DNA of 64,000 bases. Source: Prorocentrum cordatum (taxonomy: Eukaryota). The notes under the pieces are model-generated. The model did no database searches, was not told the origin of the DNA, and saw nothing but the letters and a program-made list of their open reading frames with translations. The stretch covers positions 62,001 through 126,000 of the forward strand of contig CAUYUJ010000325.1 in the NCBI GenBank assembly GCA_963575745.1, read 5' to 3'. Below are positions 17,591 through 39,212 of this stretch, piece after piece. The position numbers and the translations under genes were made by a program. The stretch's first letter is position 1, and each line of letters starts with the position of its first letter.

Positions 17591-19618
17591 ATGCTTCAGA
17601 AGGAACACCGAGCGCCGTCAGGTGCTCTCAAACGTGGCGTCAGTCTTCGATCTCTCGTCCAGGGGGGGCATGCAGACAGTCAGGCGTCAGCTAAACGTGC
17701 CAAGGCGAACTCGGACAATCTAGTTGCCCAGAACGCCGTGAACTTACTATCCCACGGAGTTCGCCTGAGCGACATCAAACGAGTTTGCAAAACGCATGTT
17801 GGTACCTCTGGCGCTTATTCTGATCAACTTGCTTCGAAGTGCGCAGGCATCGGCGGTGCCAGTTCAAAGAACATCGAGCGATATTCCCACCTGTTCATGC
17901 ACAAAGTTTTCCCTGACGTTCACATCGAGCCGTATGTTATCAAGTTGCCACTTCTGACGGCTCACAGCTCAACGAAATGGTCATGGCAGTGGTACCCCAC
18001 CTTCATGCTCCATGAGATGCTGGAGTTCATCAGCGCTGGAGGCACCATCCAAGAACATGCCAGTCTTATAGGTACTGGCGGAGCCGAGTCTGTGCGCTCC
18101 TTCTGGTGCCACGCTAACCAATGCGAAGGCCTCGTCGATCTCTGCATGCATACCGATGGGCATCCGATTCCTCTCATCAACCATTACGACGGGGTTGTCA
18201 TGTTTCGAAACACGGAGATTGACGTTGTATCGTTTTCATCGGTCATGGTGCACGACAAAGGAATTTCGATATTCGACAAGAAGTTCCCGCTGTGCATTCT
18301 GAAGCACAAGGCCGTGCCCGACATCCTTGCGAAGTCCATGGCGTTCGAGCAGGAAGTGTTGCTATCAAGTAAGCATCCATGCGAGGGCTTTTACGGTGAG
18401 GCCCTCAAGCGAGCGCACACTGCCAAGCCGCTGGGCGTTCGCGCTTGTCTGCTGGGGTGGCACGGCGACTTCAAGGCGAGAAAAGAGTGTCATTGCATGC
18501 CGTGGTACTACCGCACAAAAAGCATTTGTGACCTCTGCGAAGCCCAGCATACGTCAGCCAAAGCTGACCCCACGATGACCGTCAGAGATGTTCGGTCGAC
18601 GGCGAAATGGCGAGATACCGTTTACACGCTGGGACAGCTCAACAGTATGGTGCCGTCACCGTGGTTTAAGATCAGAGGCTTCAGCCATGCGCGAATTTTC
18701 ATGGACGAGATGCATCTTCTCTGGCTGGGGATCTGCCAGATCATCGTTGCAAACGTGACCATTCATTGGCTCGATGGGGGTCAGCTTCGCGAATGGGCCA
18801 AGGCTCGGGCGTGAGAGCGTCCAAGACTGGGGGGGGGGGAGGGACGGATGGGGGACGGCAATATGAGGCGGGCCAGCGAGGGAAGGCGGTGGGACCAGCG
18901 AGCGGAAGGTTGAGGAGGGGTGGGAGGACCAAGGAGGAGAGCGGGAAGATTTGTTTCGGCCCCAAAGGCTCGTGGCAATGATGATCCGTTGGGTGAGCGA
19001 TGGCTTGACTTCAGGGCGTTCGCTGATGCACGCGGCCTGCAACTTAGTTCGTTTTGTTTTTTTTTCACGCTCCGCCATTCGGGCAGAGGCGACGGCAAGA
19101 GGAACCACCCCGAAGTGACCTCGATGGTTTCAGCCGAGAGCGTGAAAGCTTGCGTGATCTACTTAGCTCATGTTGCACACCAAATTGAAACAACCTCGTT
19201 CGAGTGTAAAGTAATTCGGTTGGTGTTGCGGAGCTTGTACAGCATGCTTAGGCCGATGGATTCGTCCCCCGTGTGGCTCCCCAGTGACACCCGCAGGGCG
19301 CTTCAGCGTTTTGTTCGCACAGTGCTTCTAGGCTGCCAACACATGTCGTATTGGGCTCTGTCGAATGATGCCGTGGCTTGGGATCTAAGGCCGAAGCACC
19401 ACTACCTAGATCACGCTGCCACCAACCTAGACGTGTCACCTCTGAACTGGAATGTAACTGCATGCTGGGATTCCGAGAAGTGGCTGGGCAAACTGAAAAT
19501 GTTTGGCAACGCAACGCACTCTGCAAAGGCCGTGGGCCTAAGGGGCTTACAGAGATACGTTGCATTCCTGAAAGTGCGGTTTAAGAATAGGGGTACGTTC
19601 AACAAACCAGATATCTAA
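17591..19618 (+). CDS. CMC-superfamily-like DDE transposase, join(17591-18802, 18968-19618)
   Basis: Motifs in the expected order: PLINHYDG (D), WHGDFKAR (D), CDLC, MDEMHLLWLG, RPKHHYLDH, CWDSEKWLGKLK (E). A 165-bp GC-AG intron with AAG|GCTCG at both ends removes the stop at 18812-18814 and keeps the frame. Confidence 0.8.
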
Positions 19619-26599: not shown

Positions 26600-29500
26600 C
26601 ACGTATTCGCACGAGAGCCTCGACGAAGACATGGATCGTCGGCGCCCCTGGATACATGTGTTGCTCCCCCCTTCGCTGTTTGCCTCAATCGTCGCCTCCG
26701 GCACCAGGGCCAGCACCAAGACGGCCCCGCGTCCCCCCTGCGAGACTCCAAGATGATCCCAAGTCTGATGGGTGGCCCTGGACTTCTGGGCTTTCGGTCC
26801 CAAAAAGCCCCACTCAGTTTCCCAATGTCGGCGGCCCGACCACTTCGAATCGGCTCCAGTACAGTCGATCCGCTTCGAAAGCGCCTGCAGGCCTCGCTCA
26901 AACGCTGTACGGTACGTAGTTCTTCGCCAATGAAGGCCGAGCAGATGCGCCGTACGATTCCCAGGTCGGGGATCGACGACGCCTCGATGGACGCCAACGC
27001 GGTACGGTGCACCCAGGTCGTCCAGGGATCCTAGACGAGCCCACGACATCCCGGGAGGCCTCCGAGTCCCCGGGGGGTCTGCAGGGAGGCCTCCAGCGAG
27101 GCCCAGGGCGGCCAAGGCAAGACAGCTACGGACGTTCTGTGCACGTGCTTCTTCAGACACTGCGGGGAGGCTTCAGAAGGCTCCGACCGTCGGAGGTCCG
27201 AGCGGATTTTCTCGGATCGGCGTCTGGGCGTCGCTGCCAGCGGGGCCCAGGCGCCGATCCGAGAAATCCGAGCAGACCTCCGAAAGCTTATGTTTATACC
27301 GCTTTCCTCCTTCGACAGCCACAACACGGCACCAAGACGGTCACAACAAGGCACCAAGACAGCCCTCCCCAAAGAAAACAAGACGGCCCGCCTCGAGAAG
27401 ACTGCCCCGAGATCCGCCGAGAAGACCCCGGCCCTGAGATGCTTCGACCGAGTTGTTTCGGGAGAGCGGGGGGGAACACTCGCGCCCAAATCCCAAGACG
27501 GCCCCGAGATCCTCAAGAGGCTCCCAAGGGATCCCTAAAATAATCACTAGGCACTGGGGCATAAACATAAAAGTTCCAGGGTCCGCGTGGATTGCCGGAT
27601 CTGCGCTGAATCCCCCTCCCCGGCGCGCGGAGTGCGCCAGGGGCGGCGCCCGAGGCGCCGCCAGAGGGGGGCCCAGCGCTGATCAAAGAAATCCGCGCGG
27701 AACCCCGAAAGCTTACTTTTGGTATTCCTTACTTGATCCATGCAACACCCACCAAGGATGCCTCCATGCGAAGCGATGCGATGCGACCACCGTTGCGGAC
27801 AGCGTCCGGGCCTAGAGCAGACCAGGTGGGTGAGGCCATGGCCTCTAGGATCTGATGTGTCAGGACTCATGCAGTGCGAGACATGCTAGAAATTAGAAGG
27901 AAAGGGGGAGGAGGAGGAAACAACAAGTCCTTGGTGTCGGTGTCGGCGCGGGTTGGGCGAGACGTCTCGACGTTCGCAAAGATTCTACGTCATTGGTCTG
28001 AGTCCCAAGTGCTGGTCGACATGAGGTCGGTGAAGTGGTGCTCGAGCGCTGTCCATGCTTCGGTGTCCTGGGCTGTTTGCGTCCATGTGGGCGAGCAACG
28101 ACATATGTACATGTACGCCCTCCGCGGTCTTGCCTGCACGAACGTCCGCGTTGACACGCACTCCGGGGGAAACTAACCGCGTACGTGTACATATGTTGCT
28201 GGCCTCTGACCATGTGATGTCGTTCGGTTGTCCTTTCGAATGGAATTGCGTGGGCGGTCGGTGGAAGTCTGGTCTGCGTTGACGCAAGTAGGTCGTACCA
28301 GCTCTTGTTTTGGCCACCGTGTTGCCTGTGTCCCCGCTGGCGCGGGTTGAAGACTGGGTGCCAACGCAGCACTCGCCATGTCCACCTCGTCCAGCCGTGG
28401 TTTGCGACTCGTGAAGCCATGCGCCAGACTTTCCCTTTGTGCAGCGTCTCCCAGGTGTCAATGTGGTGGAACTTCATGAGGTGCCCTGCGCGTCGTGTCG
28501 CTCGTTGGGTGTAGTCGACCCATGGTTCCATTTCGTCTGCGGTGGTGCTGTCTTCGCCGTCTTCGCTGTGCTTGTCGGGCGTGTCAGGTGCATCACACTG
28601 TGATGGGTTGCTGTCTGCGTCGTCGCTAATGCTGTTGGCGCGGTCTTCGTGGTTTTGTGCTTCGTTGTTCGCGCCGTCGATCTGGACGCCCGACATGGGT
28701 ACGGAGAGAATGGGTACAATGCCCAACAGCAGTTCCTGTTCATTTGAACAGGACTCGCTGTCCGCGCCGCCGCAGCCTGTGTCCATTCGAAACAGAAGGC
28801 TGCCTGCCAAACAGCGGCCGCTGTTGGTTTGGGGCAACATTTGTTGTTGGGCATTGTACCCATTCTTTCGGTACCCATTCCGGGCGTCCAAAGTCGAGAC
28901 CAGGTCCCTGGCCGTCGTGAGGGTCGTTTTTTTTTGTTGTGCGTCTCCGCGGCGTTCTGATGATCATGCGAAGCATGCGTCGTTGTGTCCGTCGTAGATG
29001 CTGCCGTAGAGACTCCGTGAGGGTCCACGTCTCTGCTCCGTATAACGCTGTAGGTGCTACAGTGCTGTTGAAAAGTCGACGTCGGTGAGCCAGTGGGTAG
29101 CGTTTGCTGGTCAGCTCCTGCTTGCGAGACGCGAATGATGCCCAGGCACCTCGCGCGCGGTGGTGGGTTTTCGATTTCATCGGTTCGTGGAAGCTGATCA
29201 AGTGGCCGAGGTATTTTATACTGCCCTCGTATGGAACGATGTCTACATCAATGTCTTGGAAACGTGCTGTGCGTGAGCTCGCCCTTCCGGTCCTTCTCGT
29301 CTGGTTGCTCAATATTTTGGTTTTGCTTGAGTGTAGTTCGAGCCCGCGTAGCCTCGTCGCGCGCGCAATGTCGTCAAGCATCGCTGTCAGGCGCGGGGGA
29401 GTTTGGCTGGTCAGGAGCACGTCGTCGGCGAAGCGCAGGTTGGTCAGCGCGGCGGTGCTCGCGGATCCCAATTCAACTCCCTTCCTTTTTTGCTGATGTT

Positions 29501-32500
29501 CGGAAACCAGCGGTCCAAGGATGTACGGTAGAAGAGCTTTGAAGAGTAGGGGGCTGCGTGGGTCTCCCTGCTTCGTGCCCCGCAGGAGGCTAAAGGGTCT
29601 GCTGCAGACGTCTGTCCTCACCGTGGTTCTGTCCCTCAAAGAGCTGTTGGAGTAGTGCAACGTATCGAGGTTGGACCCCTTGTGCCTTCAGCACTGCCCA
29701 TATGCTCTTGTGCTCAACTGAATCGAGAGTTTTTTTGAAGTCGAGTGCTGCGACCCAGAGGTTTTGGCCCCATTCGCTTGCGCGCTCGCGCAATAAATGG
29801 AAAGTAAAGAGGTGGTCAGTGGTCGAATGGCCCGGCCTGAAGCCCGCCTGTTCGGCAGTCTGGTGTGAGCCAAGCGTCGGTTGTAGCCTGTTGTACAGTA
29901 GTCGGCTGACTAGCTTGCACTACAATGGTATCGTGCAAATGGGGCGGTACTTTTGAACAACGCGAGATTATCACTTTTTGGTACGACTGTGATGACTGTG
30001 CTCTTCCAGCAGGCTGGCGGCGGGGCTTCGCGCTGCAGGATCGTGTTGTAGAGGGGGAGAAGTGCACCTCTGAGTTCATCTGTGCCTTCTTTGAGCATCT
30101 CTGCGAGGAGGCCTTTCGTGTCTGGGGCTTTACCAAGCCGGAGACCTTTGATCGCCTTGTTTGGCTCTTTCGGTGTCATGGGTGGGAGTCGGTGAGTCTG
30201 CTGGTCGCTGTCAGTCGTAGGTCTGCCAAGTCTGTTGGCCGGCGGGAGGGGGTCGGTCTGCTGGTCTGCTGGTCGGTGTTTGCTGCTTTGCCGGTCTGCT
30301 GGTCGGTCTGCTGGTCGGTCAGCGGGGTCGTCGTTTGGTCGTTGTGGGAGTCGGTGGGTCTGCTGGTCGGTCGGTGGCAGTCGGTCTGCCGGTCTGCTAG
30401 TCGGCGGTCGGTCTGCTAATATACTGGTTGGTCGGCCGGCGCGGCGTTCGGCCTGTTGGTTTGCCGGTCTGCTGGTCGGTCTGCTGGCTGGTGTGCTGGC
30501 CAGTGGTCGGTGGGGTCATCGTTCGGTCGTTGTGGGAGTCGGTGGGTCTGCTGGCCGATCGGTGGTAGTCGGTTTGCTGGTCTGCTAGTCGGCGGTCGGT
30601 GGTCGGTCTGCTGGTCTGCTGGTTGGTCGGCCGGCGCGGCGTTCGGCCTGTTGGTTTGCCGGTCTGCTGGTCGGTCTGCTGGTCGGTCAGCGGGGTCGTC
30701 GTTTGGTCGTTGTGGGAGTCGGTGGGTCTGCTGGTCGGTCGGTGGTAGTCGGTCTGCTGTGAGCTGTGAGCTGCGGGGCCTCTAAAGGCTGGAAACAAGG
30801 TGGGCCCGAGGCTCTCTCTCTCAGGAGCCTCCAGGGCCAGCAGGAGGGGGCCGCTTCGGGCCGCCCTCCCCGAGGGGCCGCTTCGGGCCAACCTCCAGCA
30901 CACCCTCACGAGGGGCCGCGTCGGGCCTCTCCGAGGGCAGGCCGCCAGGGCCAACGGGGGCGCCTAGGCCCCAGGGCCACGAGGGCGGGCAGTGCCGAGA
31001 GGCATGCAGAAGCAGCGAAGCTGCACCGATTGCTAGCTCACGTACACATTCAAATACAAGAAATGCGAATGCACGGAGCAAACGGAATTAGCGTCCGCAC
31101 GCAAGGCGAACCGTCCTGCCCCTGGGCCTCGGCAAGGACGAGGAGCCTCTCAAGCGAAAGCGAGGGCCCGTGAGCAACACAGGCGATCGATGCTAACGAG
31201 AGGTCGTCCAAAAAGGCCCAGAGACCGCGAACGGGCTCGTCCACGCCGCCAGCTCCGCCTCCGCGCGGGGGGGCCTCCTCCGACTCCTCCTCGAAGGCCG
31301 TGCCGATGACGACTGGACGCAGGTCGAAGCGGACGCGACGGGCGCGCCGCCCCATGCTTGCACCTCGCCTCCTGCGGACGCGGCTGCCCTCGAAACCAGC
31401 GCCAGGACCAGTACCGCCAGCCACAGGAGCCGCGAGGGCCCCGCCGCCTCCCGAGAGGAGCGCCGCAGGGTGAGCGCGCAGGTACGCCAGAACCGAAGTG
31501 CTGGCCTGTGGCGCCGCCTCCGACACCGAGCAGGTCGTATCCACTTCAGCGTCGGCAGCACCCACCTCCTGATAGTCGAACTCGGCCGAGTCGGCCGCAC
31601 TGCCAGCAGTGCCTCCAGGGCCGAACACGTCAAAGGCATTCATACAGACATCGGCACGCTCAGGCCGAATAGACCCAGGTAGACCATGCAGAGAAGTCGG
31701 ATCCACAGCAGATCCCTTCGGAAGGGCGTCTGCAGGGGCAGGAAAGGACCGATACCGCCGAAGACGATGGCGATGCTCGTCCGCACCCGGCTCATATACG
31801 GCTTGCTCGGCATGGTAGTCCACAGACGCGCCAGCTGCTAGGTGTGCATGCTGTACTTCACACCCAGGTGGGCCTTCAGCAAACTCTGCTTCAGGTTGAA
31901 CAGCTTCAGCACGAGGTGCCTGGGCAGTCAGATGACCGAGCTCGCGAAGCAGGATCTCCGCCTGTTCGCCCTCAAAGGTCGGCATGAACTGCTCGAAAAG
32001 GTCCGAGCCCTGTGGAACGAAAACCGGGGCCTCAGGATTCCAAGCGAAGCCCTCTTGCCTACACTCCAGTCGCGGCCCCTTCTGGAGGCTCTTGAGAGCA
32101 TGCACTCCTGCGCTGGCGATGCTTACACCAGAAGCGTCGGAGTGCAACGCCACGTTCCTCCTGAGGACGCTGACGTGGCTTGGGAGGCGTCCACGCAGCA
32201 AATCCTGGAGTGCTGGCGCCAGTGCCAACAGGCGGTCGGCCAGCTCCGCATCGCCGCCGGCCAGCGCGCCCACGAAGTCGAGCAACTGCATGTGCTGTTC
32301 CCTGATACGACCAAGCTCCTCCGATAGCTTGGAGACCGCTCTATCCGCTGAGCGAATGGCCCAGAGCCGTGCGGCCTTGCGATCTTGTGCCGTTCTCCTC
32401 GGCGCGCATTCCGCGCCGTCCCGTATCGCCATTCCGCGCCCGAGCAAGCATGCTAGATCGCGAACTGACTTGAGCCAAAATGGCTACGGGAGTCGGTCTG

Positions 32501-35500
32501 CTGGTCTGCTAGTCGGCGGTCGGTCTGCTGGTCTGCTGGTTGGTCGGCCAGCGCGGCTTTCGGCCCCTTGGTTTGCCGGTCTGCTGGTCGGTCGGCTAGT
32601 CGGTGGTCGGTGGGGTCGTCGTTTGGTCGTTGTGGGAGTCGGTGGGTCTGCTTGCCGATCGGTGGTAGTCGGTCAGCTGGTCTGCCAGTCGGCGGTCGGT
32701 GGTCGGTCTGCTGGGCTACTGGTCGGTCGGCCGTCGCGGCGTTCGGCCTGTTAGGTTGCGGGTCAGCTGGTCGGTCTGCTGGTTGGTCTGCCAGTCGGCG
32801 GTCGGCGCGATCGTCGTTCGGTCGTTCCGGCTGCGTCGCCGTTGTTGTCGAGTTGTACATTTGCTGGTAAAACTGCGCGAAAACGTTCGCGACTTGTCGC
32901 GTCGTACACTTGTTGCCCTCTGTGTCTGTCATGTGGGTAGTGAGAGTTCGTTTTCTTCGTGCTTTGATACGCGGCATGCTCTTTAAATATCTGAACTGCT
33001 CCAGTACGTTTGCTTTGTGTGCCCGTCGTCTCGTGCTCTTCTGTGCACGGATCTCTTCCTGTATACGTTTACTCAATTGCTTGCGGGCGTGGTGGTCGTT
33101 ATTTGGCGTATCGTGCGGTTCAGTAGTACATTGTCGAACTGCTTGTGATTGCCGCCACTGCTATACGTGATTATTTTGCATTGGATTGCGAAAAAGCGCG
33201 TTCGCAAAAACAAAGCCTTCCAGGGCGGCCCAATGATGTAGCCAACTACCCCTCGAGGTTTGTTCCCCGAACCCATGGCGGCCAACGTGTCTGGAAGTGG
33301 TGCTGTCGAAAATGTCGGCGGCGTCGTCTGCGTCCTCGGAGGTCATGGAAGCCCCCACCTGTGCGGTAAAATCGCCTGCGAGTATCAAATGATGTCGTGT
33401 TTTGGTGCTCTCTCTCTCTCTCTCTCTGTGAAGTTCGTGGATCATGTCGTACATGCGCTGCACGCGTGGGTCATTCTATCCCGAATGAGGAAAATATGCA
33501 GCCACGAGTTGTTGTTGCAGTCTCCCTTTCTTCACCGACACCGAGGCGAGTCTGGGCGAAAGCGCTTGGAACCTCTGTATGTTTTAAACCCAACGTCGAT
33601 GTATGATCAAGGCAACTCCATGGCATGCTTGGTCATTGCCAGATCCGGCGAAGGCGTGCCCTTCCGAAGTTGTCCAGAACTTTTCGGCCGTTGTTTTCCA
33701 TGTTTCGTTGAGAAGGACGAAATCCCAGTGATCGGACTCGGGCTCACTGATTATCTCGCTGACTCGGTCGTCTGTTGAAAGGGACGGGGCGTTTTTGTGA
33801 ATGATTGTCATATGTATGTGGTCGGTCTGCCCTGGTTGTTGTTGGTGCTGTGGAGGGGGAGGAGGAGAGGGGGGAATGATGGGAGGGAGAGGGCTGGACG
33901 ACGTTGCTGCTTGTCTGTTGTCGACGACGATTGGTGATGGAGTTGCTGGTCGTCGCCGGTCGGTGGCAGGCTGGTCGGTTGGGGTCGGTGTTGTTTGCTG
34001 TGATGTGGCTGTGTGGTGTCGGTGGGCGCTGGTGGGCGTCGCTGGTTGGTTTGCGTCTGTGCTGCTTGTGGTGGCGTCGCTGGTAGGTCGTGTTCGGTGG
34101 AGTGCGCTTGTGTGTGCTGTTGGTCGGTTGGGGTCGGTGGTGCTTGTGGCATTGTCTGTCGGTCGCGGTTGTCGGTGGGCGCTGGTGGGAGCTGCTGGTC
34201 AGTTGGAGGTCGTGTTTCTTGCGGTGGCGTTGCCGGTTGTTGCTGGTCGTGAGTGGGTCGCAATGGGCGCTGCTCGTCGGTTGGGGTCGGTGTTGCTTGC
34301 TCTGTTGCTGGTCGGCGGCTGTCGGTGGGCGCTACGGGGCGCCGCTGGTCGATTGGGGTCTGTGCTGCTTGCGGTTGCAGTGCTGGTCGGTTGTGGTCGG
34401 CGGTGGGCGCTTGCGTGCATTGCTATTCGGTCGGTTGCGGTGCTGCTTGTGGTGCCGTTAGTCGGTCGCAGTTGTCGTTGGGTCGTGGTTGTCGGTGGGC
34501 GTTGGTGGTCGTGGCACCGTTGGTCACGGTTGTCGGCGGGTCGTGGTTGGTCGGTCGGTCGCGGTTGTTGTCGGTCGCGGTTGTCGGTGGGTCGTGGTTG
34601 GTCGGTCGCTGTGGTTGGTGGTTGTGGGGCCGTTTGTCGGTTGGGTTCGTTGCTGCTTGCGGCGTTGTTGGCTGGTCGTGGCTGTCGGTGGGCGTTGGTG
34701 CGTGCTGTTCGTCGGTCGGGTGTTGTGTCTTTTGTGGTGGTGTTGTTGGTCGTCGCTGGTCGTTGGCTGGTGGCGGTGGGCGCTGCTTGTCGGTTGGGGT
34801 TGGCGTTGCTCGTTGTGATGCTGGTCGGTGGTTCCCGATGGGTGCGTTGGTCGACGCTGGTCGGTTGAAGCCCGTGCTGCTTGCATTGGACTTGTTGTTC
34901 GGTTGCGGTCGGCGGTGGTCGCTCGCTTGCGCTGTTGGTCGGTTGGGGTCGGTTTTGCTTGTGGTGGTGCTGTCGGTCGGTGGTTACTGGTGGTGATTGA
35001 TGTTGGAGGTCGCATTGTTGTCAAGAAAGATGCCGTGTGGCACGCCGCCGTCGACAGGAGAAGGAGGAGGAGAAGGAGGAGGAAGGAGCAGGGGGGGGAG
35101 GAGGCGGGGAGGGGAAGGAGAAGGTGGGTCGGCGCTGGTGGGTCTTGGGCACTGGTGGTCGCTGGTGGGTGCTGCTGGTCGGTTAGAGTCGGCGCTGCTT
35201 GCGGTGCTGCTGGTCGGTGAAAGAGGTCGGTGGTTGGTGCTGGCTGGTGTTGCTGGTCGGTGTGGGTCGGTGTTGCTTGTGGTGTTGGTCGTCGGTCGGC
35301 GGAGGTAGCTGGTGGGTGCTGCTGGTCGGGTGGGGTCGGCGTTGCTTGTGGATCTGCTGGTCGGTGTTGGTCGACGGTGGGTGCCTTGTTGTGTTGCTGG
35401 TCGGTGGTGGTCCGTGGTGGGTGCTGGTGGATGCTGCTGGTCGGTCTGGGCCGGTGCTGCTTGTGGTGTTGGTTGGGGGTCGTCGGTGGTCGCTGGTGGG

Positions 35501-36990
35501 TGCTGCTGGTCGGTCGGGATCGTTTTTGCTCTGTGGAAGATGCATGCTGGTACGTCGCCGTCTGTTCGTGCATAAGCCTTTCTTCCGCCTCCAGTGCTCC
35601 GCGCTGACGTCGGTGAAGCGGTTGGTCGCGATGTCGGCGTCGAGGCTGCAAGTCCTGAGGGGGCGGTTCCTGAAGACGGGCAACAAATTACACTGCCGTA
35701 TTGGTCTCGCATCGAATTCTGGAAGACACGGGTATTCTCAGCGGGAGGCGGAGGGAGGTAGGGGAGAGGAAAATTCGAATACCCGAGTGTGTTGACAAAA
35801 ACCTCCAAAACTTTCAGGGCCAAGGAAGCCTCCAAGAAGCCTCCAAGGGGCAACGCAACAATCGTGCAATGGACTTCTGGCAGCACAAAGAGCAGGAAAT
35901 GCACAGGAGGCGCAGCGGGTCGGGTAGGCAGGGTCGGGGGGTCCTTCAGAAAGCAGGAGGGGACACGTTGTTTCACGGGCGCTCGTTGACCCGCGAGAAT
36001 GAAAAGATGCAGCCTGGACAGGGGTGAGAGCACGGCCATGCGCACCTTCAAATATGTTTGTCAACGAGGCCCTCAACACCGAAGATGTAGTCGGTAGCGA
36101 GAACACGATTCCTGAATACAGTGTGGAGCAGTCTCAGGCGAAACCGCCGCCTGACCGACGCTGTCGACCTGGCGATCTCGAGCTCCCCGTCCCCACTGTG
36201 GGATTTCTGTTGTCCCTTTTTACTTCCATGAGAAACCTCTAGGGCAAAACTGCCCAGCGGCTTCCAGCTACCCCGAGGAGGTATCCGTCGACTTCAGCAT
36301 GCTGGGGGGAGAAAGCGTGTGAAATGATGAGGAGGACGGGGGGGGAGTCAGGGAGCGGCGCCAGAGCTCCTCAACGCACCTCCCTGGCCCTCGAAGCCTC
36401 TCCAGGACGGTGCAAGAACGGCTCCAATGCGCCCCAGGAGCCTCAAGACGATTCTAGATGGCCGCAAGACAGTTCGAGAAGCTCCCAAGACGCCCGAAGA
36501 GGGCTCCAAGAGGACACCCAAGACCAATGATTTTCTAAAATGTTGATTCAAAACAATAAAACTTGTGCGCTCGCAGTGTTGGCCTAAACGCGCCCCACAC
36601 CATCCCAAGATGGACCAAGAGACCCGGAAAGGGACCCGGAGACGGCCCAAGAAGGGCCCCCAAACCGCCCGAGGGACCCCGAAGACGGCCCAAGAAGTGC
36701 CCAAGAGGGCCCCGACCCGAGGGGGGTAACTCGAAGGGGCTCGGGGGAGCCTCGCCCCCTCCAAGATGGCCTCTAACATGCCCCCGAAGGAGCCCCCAAG
36801 AGGCCGCCAGGCGGCCCCACGGCGCTCCCGGGAGGCCTCACACGGCCCCCTCGGACCTCCAAACGGTCTCCAAGAGGCGCCGCAACACATCCCGGGCGAC
36901 TTCCAAAAAGCCTCGTCGTCCTGCACCTTCTCACCTTTTGAAATCCAGTTCCACAAGAAACGAAGCCGCTGCATCCCCTGAATCACTGTT
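26600..36990 (-). CDS. Multi-exon host gene of unknown product (partial model; ends uncertain)
   Basis: Phase-compatible exons 27811-27762, 27159-27091 and 27030 to about 26845, joined by GC-AG introns, give PDAVRNGGRIASLRME|CLKKHVHRTSVAVLPWPPWASLE|DPWTTWVHRTALASIEASSIPDLGIVRRICSAF. Candidate upstream exons at 35944-36130 and about 36900-36990. Confidence 0.4.
27170..27320. mobile_element. Degenerate copy of the GATTTCT/AGAAATC hairpin MITE family
   Basis: GGATTTTCTCGGATCGGCG...CGCCGATCCGAGAAATCC...CTCCTTCGA. Confidence 0.65.
27545..27740. mobile_element. Degenerate copy of the same hairpin MITE family
   Basis: GGCATAAACAT..GGTCCGCGTGGATT...GATCAAAGAAATCCGCGCGGAACC. Confidence 0.65.
28681..28892. 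mobile_element. 212-bp MITE inserted in the LINE
   Basis: TIRs of about 45 bp: TGGACGCCCG..ATGGGTAC.GA.AGAATGGGTACAATGCCCAACA and its inverse. GTCGA duplicated at 28676-28680 and 28893-28897. Confidence 0.85.
31050..32432 (-). CDS. Intronless 460-aa hypothetical protein with an N-terminal helical region and a PAM2-like motif
   Basis: Uninterrupted ORF starting 36 nt after the SL; WNPEAPVFVP at 32013-32042 resembles the PAM2 consensus LNxxAxEFxP. Confidence 0.7.
   Translation of the reverse strand: MAIRDGAECAPRRTAQDRKAARLWAIRSADRAVSKLSEELGRIREQHMQLLDFVGALAGGDAELADRLLALAPALQDLLRGRLPSHVSVLRRNVALHSDASGVSIASAGVHALKSLQKGPRLECRQEGFAWNPEAPVFVPQGSDLFEQFMPTFEGEQAEILLRELGHLTAQAPRAEAVQPEAEFAEGPPGCEVQHAHLAAGASVDYHAEQAVYEPGADEHRHRLRRYRSFPAPADALPKGSAVDPTSLHGLPGSIRPERADVCMNAFDVFGPGGTAGSAADSAEFDYQEVGAADAEVDTTCSVSEAAPQASTSVLAYLRAHPAALLSGGGGALAAPVAGGTGPGAGFEGSRVRRRRGASMGRRARRVRFDLRPVVIGTAFEEESEEAPPRGGGAGGVDEPVRGLWAFLDDLSLASIACVAHGPSLSLERLLVLAEAQGQDGSPCVRTLIPFAPCIRISCI
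32469..32489 (-). other. Genomic copy (relic) of the dinoflagellate spliced leader
   Basis: Exact CCGTAGCCATTTTGGCTCAAG. Confidence 0.97.
36370..36900. repeat. CCCAAGAGG/CCTCTTGGG-rich dispersed repeat (related copies near 7200-7320, 10800-11950, 27320-27540, 49050-49550)
   Basis: Shared GGCCCCAAGA/CTCCAAGAGG motifs. Confidence 0.7.
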
Positions 36991-37132: not shown

Positions 37133-39050
37133 TCAGGCCTTGCCCAGGATTCTCAATGCGTGCTGCTGCTGTCCAGCGGACCAGAAGCTGCCACCCGCAA
37201 CCTTCTGAGAAGGCCCACGCGGTGGAGATCCGTCACCACCTGCTACCTCTGGAGCAGCACTCTTCCTCTCCATCACGTACTGGGCCCACTCCACCTCCAT
37301 CACGTTGGTCTCCCCGGTGTCCAGATTGTGGACCGTGAACGGCAAGACGTTACCATGGATGGAAGAAGAACGCGCGGCATAGACATGAACTGTCGGACCT
37401 CCGCGCGAAACTCTCGGGTCTGAGCCAGACCCACATCCCTATCGCGAGGAGCGCGCTGGGGGCGGCGCCGTTGGGGGCCCTCGGCGCAGATTCGAGAAAT
37501 CCGCGGGGACCTCCGAAAAATGATGCTCATGCCGCCTTCTCTCCTCCCGACATGGGGTGCACTCTTCTCGTGGCCAGGTCTGAACGCCTGCGGCATGACC
37601 ACGTCGGCGCCGCCCTCGCCCTCGAGCCGGCACCGCTCCAGCACGGGGTCGGCCCGACCGCGCACGTGCCAGCTCGCCTGGCCCGTGTTCAGGTCCTTCT
37701 CGACCACAAGCTCCGTCTCGTCGGGACAGCCCGAGGCGAAGGCGGCCTCCAGGTCGGACAACATCCTTCGAGGAAGGACAAGAGTGCATACATATAAACT
37801 GTCGGAATTCCGCTGGGATTTCTTGGATCGGCGCTCGCCCGCCTGGCGGCGCCTCCGGCGCGGCCCCTGGCGCGCCGCGCGCCAGGGAAGGGGGTCCAGT
37901 GCCAATCCGAGAAATCCTCGCGGAGCTCTGAACATGATGTCTTCGTATGTGATGTGTCTTACTTCGAATCCTGTGGGTGACCTGAAAGTCTGATGCAGCG
38001 TCGAGCAACCTTTCGGCATCCCACTTCCGCGTGCGCGTGAAGCGCTTCAGGAACGTCAGCACCTCGCAGCCATCGAAAGCCAGGAGGGAGTCCTGAACTT
38101 CGTAGAGCAAAGCAAGGCCAACCTGCGCAATCACCTCCCAGCCCACTAGGAGGAAGCGGTCCCAGATGCGGCGAACCAAGGGCTGCGCGAGGTCACTCGC
38201 GAAGAGGGTCAAAAACCACTGCACCGCGTAGTATTCGGAAGTGATGCCATGTCTCTGCAGCCCACCATGTACACCCGGAAGAAAGCATTCCACCAAACGA
38301 TCAAACTGCCAAGTGGTAACGCCAAGCTTGGGGAAGCGCGGCCTGTAGAAGTCGGCCAGCGAGTATCGAAAGAGCAGCGCCTGCGCGCAGTGGAAGACCA
38401 GAGCCTCGTCGTCAGGGAACACACAGATGAGGGTCGCGATGACGAAATTGAGACTCTGTACATAGCCGATGTCACAGAGCTGCACCGCCAGCGCGTGGAG
38501 GACCCGGAAAAGAGCTCCTTGGCCCCTGCCGGCCTTGTCCCGGAAGAGAGCCTCCTGCGGCAACGTCCGCCCCAGGTCGCGCCGGATCACGTCGTCGTAC
38601 GAGGACGGTGCCAGGCCCAGGCTGTGGTACGAGTCCTGCACGGCCTCGGACTGCATGTTTGAAGGAACAAAGAGCGGCAGAAGCATAACTTCTCTGAGGT
38701 CCGAGCAGATTTCTTGGATCGGCGCTGGGCCCCTCCCAGGCGCGCGGAGCGCGCCAGGGGCGGCGACCGAGGCGCCGCCAGGGGGGGCCCAACTCCGATC
38801 CGACGAGAGGTCCGCGCGGGCCTCCAAGAGATCATGTTTATGCCGTTGTTGGTTCCTCGGATGCTCAGGCCATCCATGAAGACCGCCTTCCACGCCCGCG
38901 CCCGCTGCGACGGGTCCAGGTCGGTCTGCCACATCGCCGCCGACTCCGCCTGGCGCTCCCACAGCTGCCTCCACGCGCGGCTCGCGCAAGCGGCCTCGTG
39001 CCAGGACGGCGGCGCAAGCCACAGCCTCAAGTGCCCAGCTGCTACCGATG
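37133..39050 (-). CDS. Rab GTPase-activating protein (TBC domain) with a possible F-box-like N-terminus; exons approximately 39050-38861, 38654-37971, 37765-37551, 37353-37133; 5' exon not resolved
   Basis: RARAWKAVF, VIRRDLGRTLP (IxxDxxRT Arg finger), IGYVQSLNFV (YxQ Gln finger), QWFLTLF, RRIWDRFLLVGW. No stops in the exons once the MITEs are removed. Confidence 0.9.
37359..37550. mobile_element. Hairpin MITE/introner copy 1 in the TBC gene
   Basis: Imperfect TIRs. CATGG duplicated at 37354-37358 and 37551-37555. Removal joins SAPH|GNVLPFTVHNLDTGE. Confidence 0.8.
37768..37967. mobile_element. Hairpin MITE/introner copy 2, equivalent to GA-AG intron 37766-37970
   Basis: TCGA...TCGA termini. 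ATCCT duplicated at 37763-37767 and 37968-37972. Removal joins FQVTHR|MLSDLEAA. Confidence 0.9.
38660..38860. mobile_element. Hairpin MITE/introner copy 3 in the TBC gene
   Basis: Imperfect TIRs. ATGTT/ATGCT flanks (4/5 match). Removal joins FMDGLS|MQSEAVQD. Confidence 0.8.
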
Positions 39051-39212
39051 GTTGCAGAAGAAAAAACAGCATAAGCATCAACGCTCCAGAGCGGGCGCGG
39101 ACCTCCTGGATCAGCGCCTGGACCCCCCCCCAAGCGCGCGGAGCGCGCCATCAACCGCACCCGAGGCGCAGCCAGCGCCGATCCGAGAAATCCGCGCGGA
39201 GCTACGGACACG
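39051..39212. mobile_element. Hairpin MITE copy 4, one arm truncated by the adjacent repeat
   Basis: CAGCATAAGCATC..GGATCAGCGC...GCGCCGATCCGAGAAATCCGCGCGGAGCT. Confidence 0.7.

Follow-up and report, generated by a model that had tools for sequence, protein, structure and literature searches.

A large part of dinoflagellate genomes is believed to be the product of retroposition, and one documented class of its products is the set of retrogenes that carry a relic of the dinoflagellate spliced leader (DinoSL) in their DNA. According to papers that cite the work, DNA-encoded DinoSL relics were first reported by Slamovits and Keeling in 2008. In the sections of the more recent literature that we draw on, retrogenes with a spliced leader (SL) relic are put at 22-23% of all genes for two genomes of Symbiodiniaceae (PMC6050394, Song et al. 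2018; PMC5585692, Song et al. 2017), 477 of them are counted in a transcriptome survey of Prorocentrum minimum (PMC12014239, 2025), and DinoSL-containing transcripts are said to involve 20.1% of the Prorocentrum cordatum gene models (PMC10666404). The retroposition machinery is described in PMC5585692, in the part used here, as seemingly different from LINE1 and as unknown. The sections of PMC5585692, PMC6050394 and PMC12014239 that were available to us do not describe the target-site duplications (TSDs) or the 3' junctions of the published retrogenes, and the term "target site" has 0 occurrences in these three papers. Here we discuss an insert in a stretch of 64,000 nucleotides of P. cordatum DNA (contig CAUYUJ010000325.1, positions 62,001 to 126,000; "the window" below) that is very likely a young processed retrocopy of a mature, DinoSL-trans-spliced mRNA.

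The insert is a new member of the SL-relic retrogene class, and what it adds to that class is legible junctions. Like the published examples, it has a DNA-encoded DinoSL directly upstream of the 5' untranslated region (UTR), a continuous open reading frame (ORF), and a multi-copy family with several SL-relic members in a dinoflagellate (Prorocentrum). Unlike them, it has an SL that is complete save for the first base and two junctions that can both be read, with a TSD of 13 bp, an empty site and a 3' end that lacks poly(A). A second point of comparison is provided by the processed pseudogenes made by mammalian L1, which have TSDs of 10-20 bp, a poly(A) tract and a T-rich/A nick site. These also consist of a full-length mRNA copy with no promoter or introns, flanked by a TSD and made by the machinery of a long interspersed nuclear element (LINE) acting in trans; the insert differs from them in the missing poly(A), in the G+C-rich nick site CTGCTG^GTCTGC, and in the trans-spliced leader at its 5' end. 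Stringent pairs of a short interspersed nuclear element (SINE) and its LINE (RTE, CR1, L2) resemble the insert in the lack of poly(A), the short tandem repeat at the terminus, the stem-loops upstream of it, and the microhomology at the junction. The differences are that no partner LINE with the 3' end of the insert was found in the window, Rfam or metagenome contigs, that the insert encodes a 460-aa protein of host type, and that its repeat lies inside longer transcripts of other copies.

The insert is 1,731 bp long (30760-32490, minus strand; Table 1). At its 5' end, positions 32489..32469 of the minus strand read CCGTAGCCATTTTGGCTCAAG, which is identical to nt 2-22 of the DinoSL (21/21) when compared with the consensus DCCGUAGCCAUUUUGGCUCAAG, where D is U, A or G, as given in the part of PMC5585692 that we used. 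The next position, 32490, is a C in the sense direction and differs from the consensus D, and the SL therefore extends over 21 of its 22 nt. The 21-nt sequence has no other match in the window even when up to 3 mismatches are allowed (0 expected), and a 15-nt comparison that tolerated up to 2 mismatches gave no further SL relics there. Downstream of the leader, the ORF (P0001, 32432..31050) encodes 460 aa and is continuous with no internal stop. It is followed by a 3' UTR of 290 nt that terminates in CAGCTCACAGCTCA (30773..30760), with no A-run between the last heptamer and the TSD. Three GGCCCGAAGCGGCCCC units are present in the 3' UTR (30847-30862, 30874-30889 and 30912-30927), two of them exact and one with 1 mismatch, where 0.24 would be expected. 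The hairpins that these units form have energies of -22.0, -15.9 and -23.5 kcal/mol; compared with shuffled sequences, only the third is clearly more stable (z -3.07, versus -1.40 and -0.88 for the other two), and the folding of the whole 3' UTR is not above that of shuffles (z -1.32). An earlier sequence-only reading of this DNA had claimed an exact SL at the 5' boundary, an intact 460-aa ORF, hairpin-forming units in the 3' UTR and a 13-bp TSD, and each of these claims stood.

The TSD, AGTCGGTCTGCTG, occurs at 30747-30759 and again at 32491-32503. The two copies are identical (13/13) and are the only ones in the window, where 0 would be expected. Both flanks belong to a tandem repeat whose period is about 188 bp, and the sequence-only reading had cautioned that a repetitive flank alone might account for the duplication. 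When the flanks were aligned with three uninterrupted repeat units, the 13-mer was found once per unit and the two flanks overlapped in exactly those 13 columns. An empty site was also found among public contigs that match 30600-32650, taken from four runs (X1, X2, X4 and X11) of which X2 is guessed to be DNA and X4 and X11 to be RNA from two studies with two organism codes. In one X2 contig, at a depth of 37, position 30746 is followed directly by 32491; 1,744 letters are left out, and 13 letters can be placed on either side. This empty site represents an allele or else a different copy of the host repeat. The repeat register and the empty-site contig together show that the insertion and its 13-bp TSD are real and that the repetitive flank does not explain the duplication.

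The 3' boundary was examined in the same contigs. Contigs of X4 and X11 match the window up to 30758 and 30757, respectively, through both CAGCTCA heptamers and 2-3 letters of the TSD, and then continue into unrelated sequence. A repeat of ~20 bp beyond the heptamers also precedes the SL in X2 and X4 contigs (loose ends at 32489), and in the X2 and X4 contigs with this other flank the first base of the SL is T. These contigs indicate that other copies have the same two ends in another flank; at least two kinds of flank with the same element ends are represented in the public contigs. Because RNA-like contigs continue past the heptamers, the heptamer pair comes from the 3' UTR of the source and was not added at insertion. 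The (CAGCTCA)2 terminus without poly(A) that the sequence-only reading described is thus present in the sequence, with no A-run, but it is not a tail specific to the insertion. A further X4 contig departs from the window at 30773 and has no heptamers, which indicates that family members differ in how many heptamers they have. In the window, the heptamer is carried on by the initial 2-4 letters of the TSD (CA, CAGC), to 2.6 copies by Tandem Repeats Finder, and we read this as putative microhomology at the junction.

On the sense strand of the X4 copy, CA, three A's and a G come after the heptamers; the X11 copy has no A-run at this place. Bachvaroff and Place (PMC2488372, in the part relevant here) described a genomic mark of dinoflagellate polyadenylation sites, which consists of 3-5 A with a G or C after them. 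The 3' boundary of the insert may plausibly be a normal cleavage site, for which the X4 copy is suggestive only, since the X11 copy has no A-run. A single copy with an intron-containing parent gene whose mRNA is polyadenylated at this point, and a TSD due to the flank alone, were the two findings that the sequence-only reading had named as telling against a specialised element. The second was not borne out, and the polyadenylation named in the first is echoed by the A-run plus G at the 3' boundary of another copy, which is like the polyadenylation-site motif. No poly(A)-like loose ends occur among the matches listed (24 of 51 loose-end rows), and the absent A-run is a genuine property of the insertion event. 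An autonomous LINE with the same 3' end, for which the sequence-only reading had suggested looking, was found neither in the window nor in Rfam nor in the Joint Genome Institute (JGI) metagenome contigs. The 21-nt terminus has 0 exact matches in the JGI metagenome contigs, and the sole Rfam hit of the element, mir-341 with 20.4 bits where the gathering score is 90, is noise. A near-match to the tail at 17958-17971 (1 mismatch) falls within a long ORF of no relation to the insert and was put down to chance.

The insert probably arose as follows. The source mRNA, as part of the best explanation, belonged to a multi-copy, dinoflagellate-specific gene family of P. cordatum or a very close relative. 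Reverse transcriptase (RT) and endonuclease would have been supplied in trans by a LINE unlike L1. The plus strand would have been nicked after ...GGTCTGCTG (30759), within the internal tandem repeat of an older LINE, and the freed 3' end would have served as primer by pairing with only 2-3 nt (CA/CAG) at the end of the mRNA's 3' UTR. With priming at the very end of the 3' UTR, no poly(A) would be copied. Reverse transcription would then have proceeded through the whole mRNA up to the SL, and a break in the second strand 13 bp away would have produced the TSD. The combination of an SL end, an mRNA 3' end, a full-length body, a 13-bp TSD, an extra 5' base and 3' microhomology is a signature of target-primed reverse transcription (TPRT) that works in trans, from which we infer TPRT by a LINE and priming by microhomology. 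The near-complete SL points to a recent event. The nick site, after GGTCTGCTG and before GTCTGC, is G+C-rich, which together with the lack of poly(A) argues for an enzyme that does not behave like mammalian L1. The claim of the sequence-only reading that this is an RNA-derived copy of an SL-capped mRNA, inserted as by LINE-type machinery, is upheld by the SL and the true 13-bp TSD. The copy in the window is young enough for both junctions to be legible (SL, 13-bp TSD, G+C-rich nick, 2-3 nt of microhomology, no poly(A)), and this pattern points to TPRT by a LINE with no requirement for a poly(A) tail. Which element is responsible could emerge from young copies surveyed across the genome. A shared endonuclease target word resembling GGTCTGC, which is present in the flanks of other copies, was considered and dropped because of low-complexity flanks and differing junction positions.

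The family to which the insert belongs was characterized in protein collections and in the public contigs. The homologs of near-equal length are all "unnamed protein product [Prorocentrum cordatum]" (8/8), with local identities of 44-94%. An exact look-up of five homologs gave clusters of 1, 1, 9, 3 and 1 members that comprise 15 P. cordatum models on 13 contigs; the window's own readings of 460 aa and 477 aa are absent from this cluster collection. Five of 150 family proteins start with PFW[LF]K, which is the SL translated in frame, indicating that other genomic copies also have a DNA-encoded SL. On the insert, run X1 has 584 contigs, of which 307 are at least 99% alike, with summed depths of 10^4-10^5, and its cover over the flanks is 0. 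X1 behaves like deep RNA data from many expressed family variants, although it is not firmly labelled as RNA.

Among the 39 best-supported of 92 differences between the window and the contigs, 33 lie in the ORF, 16 of them synonymous and 17 non-synonymous. With 360.7 synonymous and 1,019.3 non-synonymous sites, the 33 ORF variants give a ratio of non-synonymous to synonymous polymorphism per site (pN/pS) of about 0.38, which measures constraint on the family and not on the copy in the window. Synonymous and non-synonymous variants split 10:1 in codons 38-136, 2:9 in codons 184-251 and 5:8 in codons 313-431. The window copy may have acquired a few private substitutions since its insertion.

The contigs also show that the family is a mosaic. 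From ~31604 (residue ~277 of P0001) to the 3' end, the members are near-identical, whereas the 5' halves differ between subfamilies; the proteins P0004-P0006 have ~50% identity in the N-terminal domain and >90% in the C-terminal part. Contigs of X1 and X11 depart from the window exactly at 31604, and one X2 contig joins 31604 directly to 32465, which leaves the SL and 4 further nt. Recombination, gene conversion or a short form that is trans-spliced on its own may lie behind this. At 31134-31288, a stretch of 153 nt (51 codons) is replaced by TCT in X1 and X11 contigs, which matches a gap in protein P0002. As the ends of this stretch are not intron-like, we take it for an indel by which paralogs differ.

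Compared with 1.84 billion cluster representatives, the encoded protein gave 144 relatives at E ≤0.001, 55 of them at E ≤1e-10. Nearly all of the 144 match only residues ~1-142, usually at their own N-terminus, and have C-terminal tails that are unrelated; their total lengths range from 66 to 1,562 residues. Ten relatives were looked up and consist of four from P. cordatum, one from Tripos fusus (MMETSP) and five on environmental contigs of ~0.8-1.5 kb, which we take to span at least two dinoflagellate orders. An AlphaFold2 model based on a 9-sequence alignment is confident only for residues ~10-125, with helices at 15-57, 62-79, 86-97 and 110-117. From residue 126 on, motif region included, the predicted local distance difference test (pLDDT) is below 50, and this tail is probably disordered. 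No known domain was recognised: Pfam matched 0 families on the whole protein and revealed no common C-terminal domain in 25 long relatives and 5 cluster members, the family profile had 0 matches in the PDB, VIA-align (wide) returned generic long helices only (Z ≤5.5), and the ESM Atlas gave no usable match. In the JGI metagenome contigs, the 580 pattern stretches matched by the single protein included no relative. Matches of the motif segment to designed SAKe repeat proteins in the PDB were judged spurious, and the UniRef name "E3 ubiquitin-protein ligase" on one cluster member has no Pfam support.

Directly after the N-terminal domain lies the PAM2-like motif FAWNPEAPVFVP. Among Pfam families, PAM2 (PF07145) alone matches the 38-aa segment (E 0.012, 15.7 bits, under the curated cut-off of 20), and the pattern [LFWMIVY][NS][PAV]xAxx[FWYL]xP is found at the equivalent place in 28 of the 150 family proteins, where shuffled sequences give a mean of 0.385 and a maximum of 2. 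Forms of the motif in relatives include LNPNAAEFFP, LNPLAKEFVP and LSADAAEFVP. The motif is kept in distant relatives, among them sequences from Tripos and from the environment, whose C-termini are of many kinds, and it is therefore a feature of a host protein family rather than an adaptation of a retroelement. The PAM2-like motif named in the sequence-only reading was in this respect confirmed as a motif and reassigned as to its owner: judged by its sequence, it is a conserved short linear motif of the host family. PAM2 motifs are known to bind the MLLE domain of poly(A)-binding protein (PABP), and PAIP2 and ataxin-2 are examples of proteins that contain one. The members of PF07145 and the family described here have in common the core hydrophobic-N/S-P/A-x-A-x-x-F-x-P, its position in a region of low model confidence, its conservation, and a G that often follows; they differ in that the window copy has W for the usual L and that the helical N-terminal domain has no known relatives. 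From the motif only, the protein is most likely a host factor of mRNA metabolism that would dock on the MLLE domain of PABP. Among the listed papers on "PAM2" with "dinoflagellate" (10 of 11), none has such a family as its subject, judging by title. With its 144 cluster representatives, the protein defines a dinoflagellate family that had no name before and in which a PAM2-like motif is conserved. As dinoflagellates regulate their genes for the most part post-transcriptionally, the family is of note there as a candidate partner of PABP.

In the sequence-only reading, an ordinary retrogene had been set aside in favour of a dedicated retroposon, non-autonomous and trans-spliced. The 3' hairpins and CAGCTCA repeats would be recognised by the RT of a stringent (RTE/CR1-like) LINE, and the PAM2 protein would recruit PABP to a tail-less RNA or hitch onto LINE ribonucleoproteins. 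The missing poly(A), the G+C-rich nick site that is not L1-like, the two or more different flanks with the same ends, and the conserved PAM2-like motif, which is real, all agree with this. The heptamer repeat also extends into the target by 2-4 nt, a feature of LINEs whose tails are microsatellites, and the variant that lacks heptamers (loose end at 30773) means that tail length varies. Taken as a whole, this proposal is nevertheless quite unlikely. RNA-like contigs of two runs pass both heptamers, which places the heptamers inside the source transcript; the 3' UTR is matched nowhere else in the window, Rfam has nothing above noise, and the JGI metagenome contigs hold no exact match to the terminus. 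The motif and the N-terminal domain occur in 144 cluster representatives with unrelated C-termini, a host-family pattern that gives no support to a protein serving the element's own mobility. SL-relic retrogenes are also abundant, accounting for about a fifth of dinoflagellate genes in the published accounts used here. A related idea, which we regard as very unlikely, is that the gene family promotes its own retroposition. A structured, non-polyadenylated or weakly polyadenylated 3' end (three hairpins and the heptamer repeat) would be recognised by a dinoflagellate LINE RT, and the PAM2 protein would act in cis on PABP-containing ribonucleoproteins. If real, such a family would stand between a host gene and a SINE, as a "retroposon gene" that codes for a protein and is trans-spliced.

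An RNA-derived copy could also have been inserted with no LINE endonuclease, by capture of free cDNA at a staggered double-strand break and end-joining with microhomology. The lack of poly(A), the 2-3 nt of microhomology at the 3' junction and the one extra nucleotide at the 5' junction are what such a route could leave, and the retroposition machinery of dinoflagellates is stated to be unknown in the relevant part of PMC5585692. A clean 13-bp TSD around a full-length insert, with no deletions and at most 1 base of filler, is instead the usual signature of TPRT, and we consider end-joining unlikely. Several observations weigh against a processed retrocopy made by a LINE. Among the contigs listed for 30600-32650, none spans the window's own insertion junctions, and support for the insertion comes from the assembly, from the TSD and from the empty site; the DNA and RNA types of the four runs are only guessed. 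At sites 31477, 32058 and 32319, the letter of the window is in no contig of any run that covers them, and nothing shows that the window copy itself is transcribed. The insert has no poly(A) remnant, unlike classical processed pseudogenes of L1 type, and the PAM2 score of 15.7 bits is below the curated cut-off of 20, missing the gathering threshold. The lack of a listed junction-spanning contig from an independent run, the repetitive flanks and the three private letters would also be expected of an assembly chimera, in which a cDNA-like or paralogous sequence was joined into a repetitive LINE, or of a segmental duplication at the DNA level. This is highly improbable. A misassembly would not make a perfect 13-bp duplication in exact repeat register, nor would its boundaries fall precisely at the first nucleotides of the SL and at an end common to other copies, and a segmental duplication would be expected to bring flanks of the donor locus, whereas the flanks here are continuous LINE repeat. 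A young processed retrocopy of a trans-spliced host mRNA, made by TPRT, is the reading that we favour.

Table 1. Features of the insert and of its host element, in window coordinates
Feature	Position	Strand	Evidence
Host: older, degenerate LINE-like element, same orientation	28740..34198	-	RT match, repeat
RT ORF of the host LINE	28740-29687	-	RVT_1 at E 1.2e-11
Target tandem repeat, 188-bp period	about 30182-30759 and 32491-32826	-	repeat analysis
3'-side TSD copy, AGTCGGTCTGCTG	30747..30759	.	two-copy count, repeat alignment, empty-site joint
3' terminus, two CAGCTCA heptamers, no A-run	30760..30773	-	sequence; both heptamers in other copies
3' UTR, 290 nt, G+C-rich	30760..31049	-	sequence
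GA-dinucleotide run, length variable among copies	30812-30820 variants	-	public contigs
Three GGCCCGAAGCGGCCCC units, each a hairpin core	30847..30927	-	pattern search, folding
Intact ORF P0001, 460 aa + stop	31050..32432	-	translation, homologs
PAM2-like motif FAWNPEAPVFVP, residues 129-140	32013..32048	-	Pfam, relatives, low-confidence model region
Conserved N-terminal helical domain, residues ~10-125	32058..32405	-	relatives, model; no Pfam family, no PDB relative
5' UTR, 36 nt	32433..32468	-	read from sequence
DNA-encoded dinoflagellate SL, nt 2-22, exact	32469..32489	-	sequence compared with PMC5585692 consensus
Single sense C between TSD and SL (SL position 1)	32490	-	T in another copy
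5'-side TSD copy	32491..32503	.	two-copy count, repeat alignment, empty-site joint

The element that received the insert is itself LINE-like. For its RT ORF, 457 relatives reach E ≤0.001; most of them lie on environmental contigs, and some come from the dinoflagellate Karenia brevis. The host ORFs upstream of the tandem repeat are endonuclease-like by eye only and have no match in Pfam. The depth of X2 is 44-75 on the flanks versus 10-17 over most of the insert, which indicates that the host repeat is itself multi-copy. The long, in-frame tandem repeats between the endonuclease-like and RT parts are unusual for a LINE ORF; the repeat with the 188-bp period encodes ADQQTD-like units, and a long P/T/Q-rich repetitive stretch lies further upstream (33800-35700). 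Additionally, a dispersed repeat of ~70-135 bp, with 74-88% identity and in both orientations, is shared between 27190-27720 and 37440-39200. It adjoins the presumed 3' end of the LINE and recurs several times around 37.4-39.2 kb, and it is possibly a small mobile or intron-associated element.

Three minor features of the insert were also recorded. The C at 32490 could be filler at the 5' junction or a modified first nucleotide that was misread by the RT. An upstream ATG at 32451 (minus strand) opens a short, out-of-frame reading frame that overlaps the start codon at 32432 and could be a translational control feature of the family. In the third hairpin unit there is a substitution at 30920 (G>T), where the alternative letter makes all three units identical. 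The alternative letter accounts for all of the depth in X2, X4 and X11 and for 6,650 of 7,624 in X1; the window letter is the minority form and possibly a private substitution of this copy.

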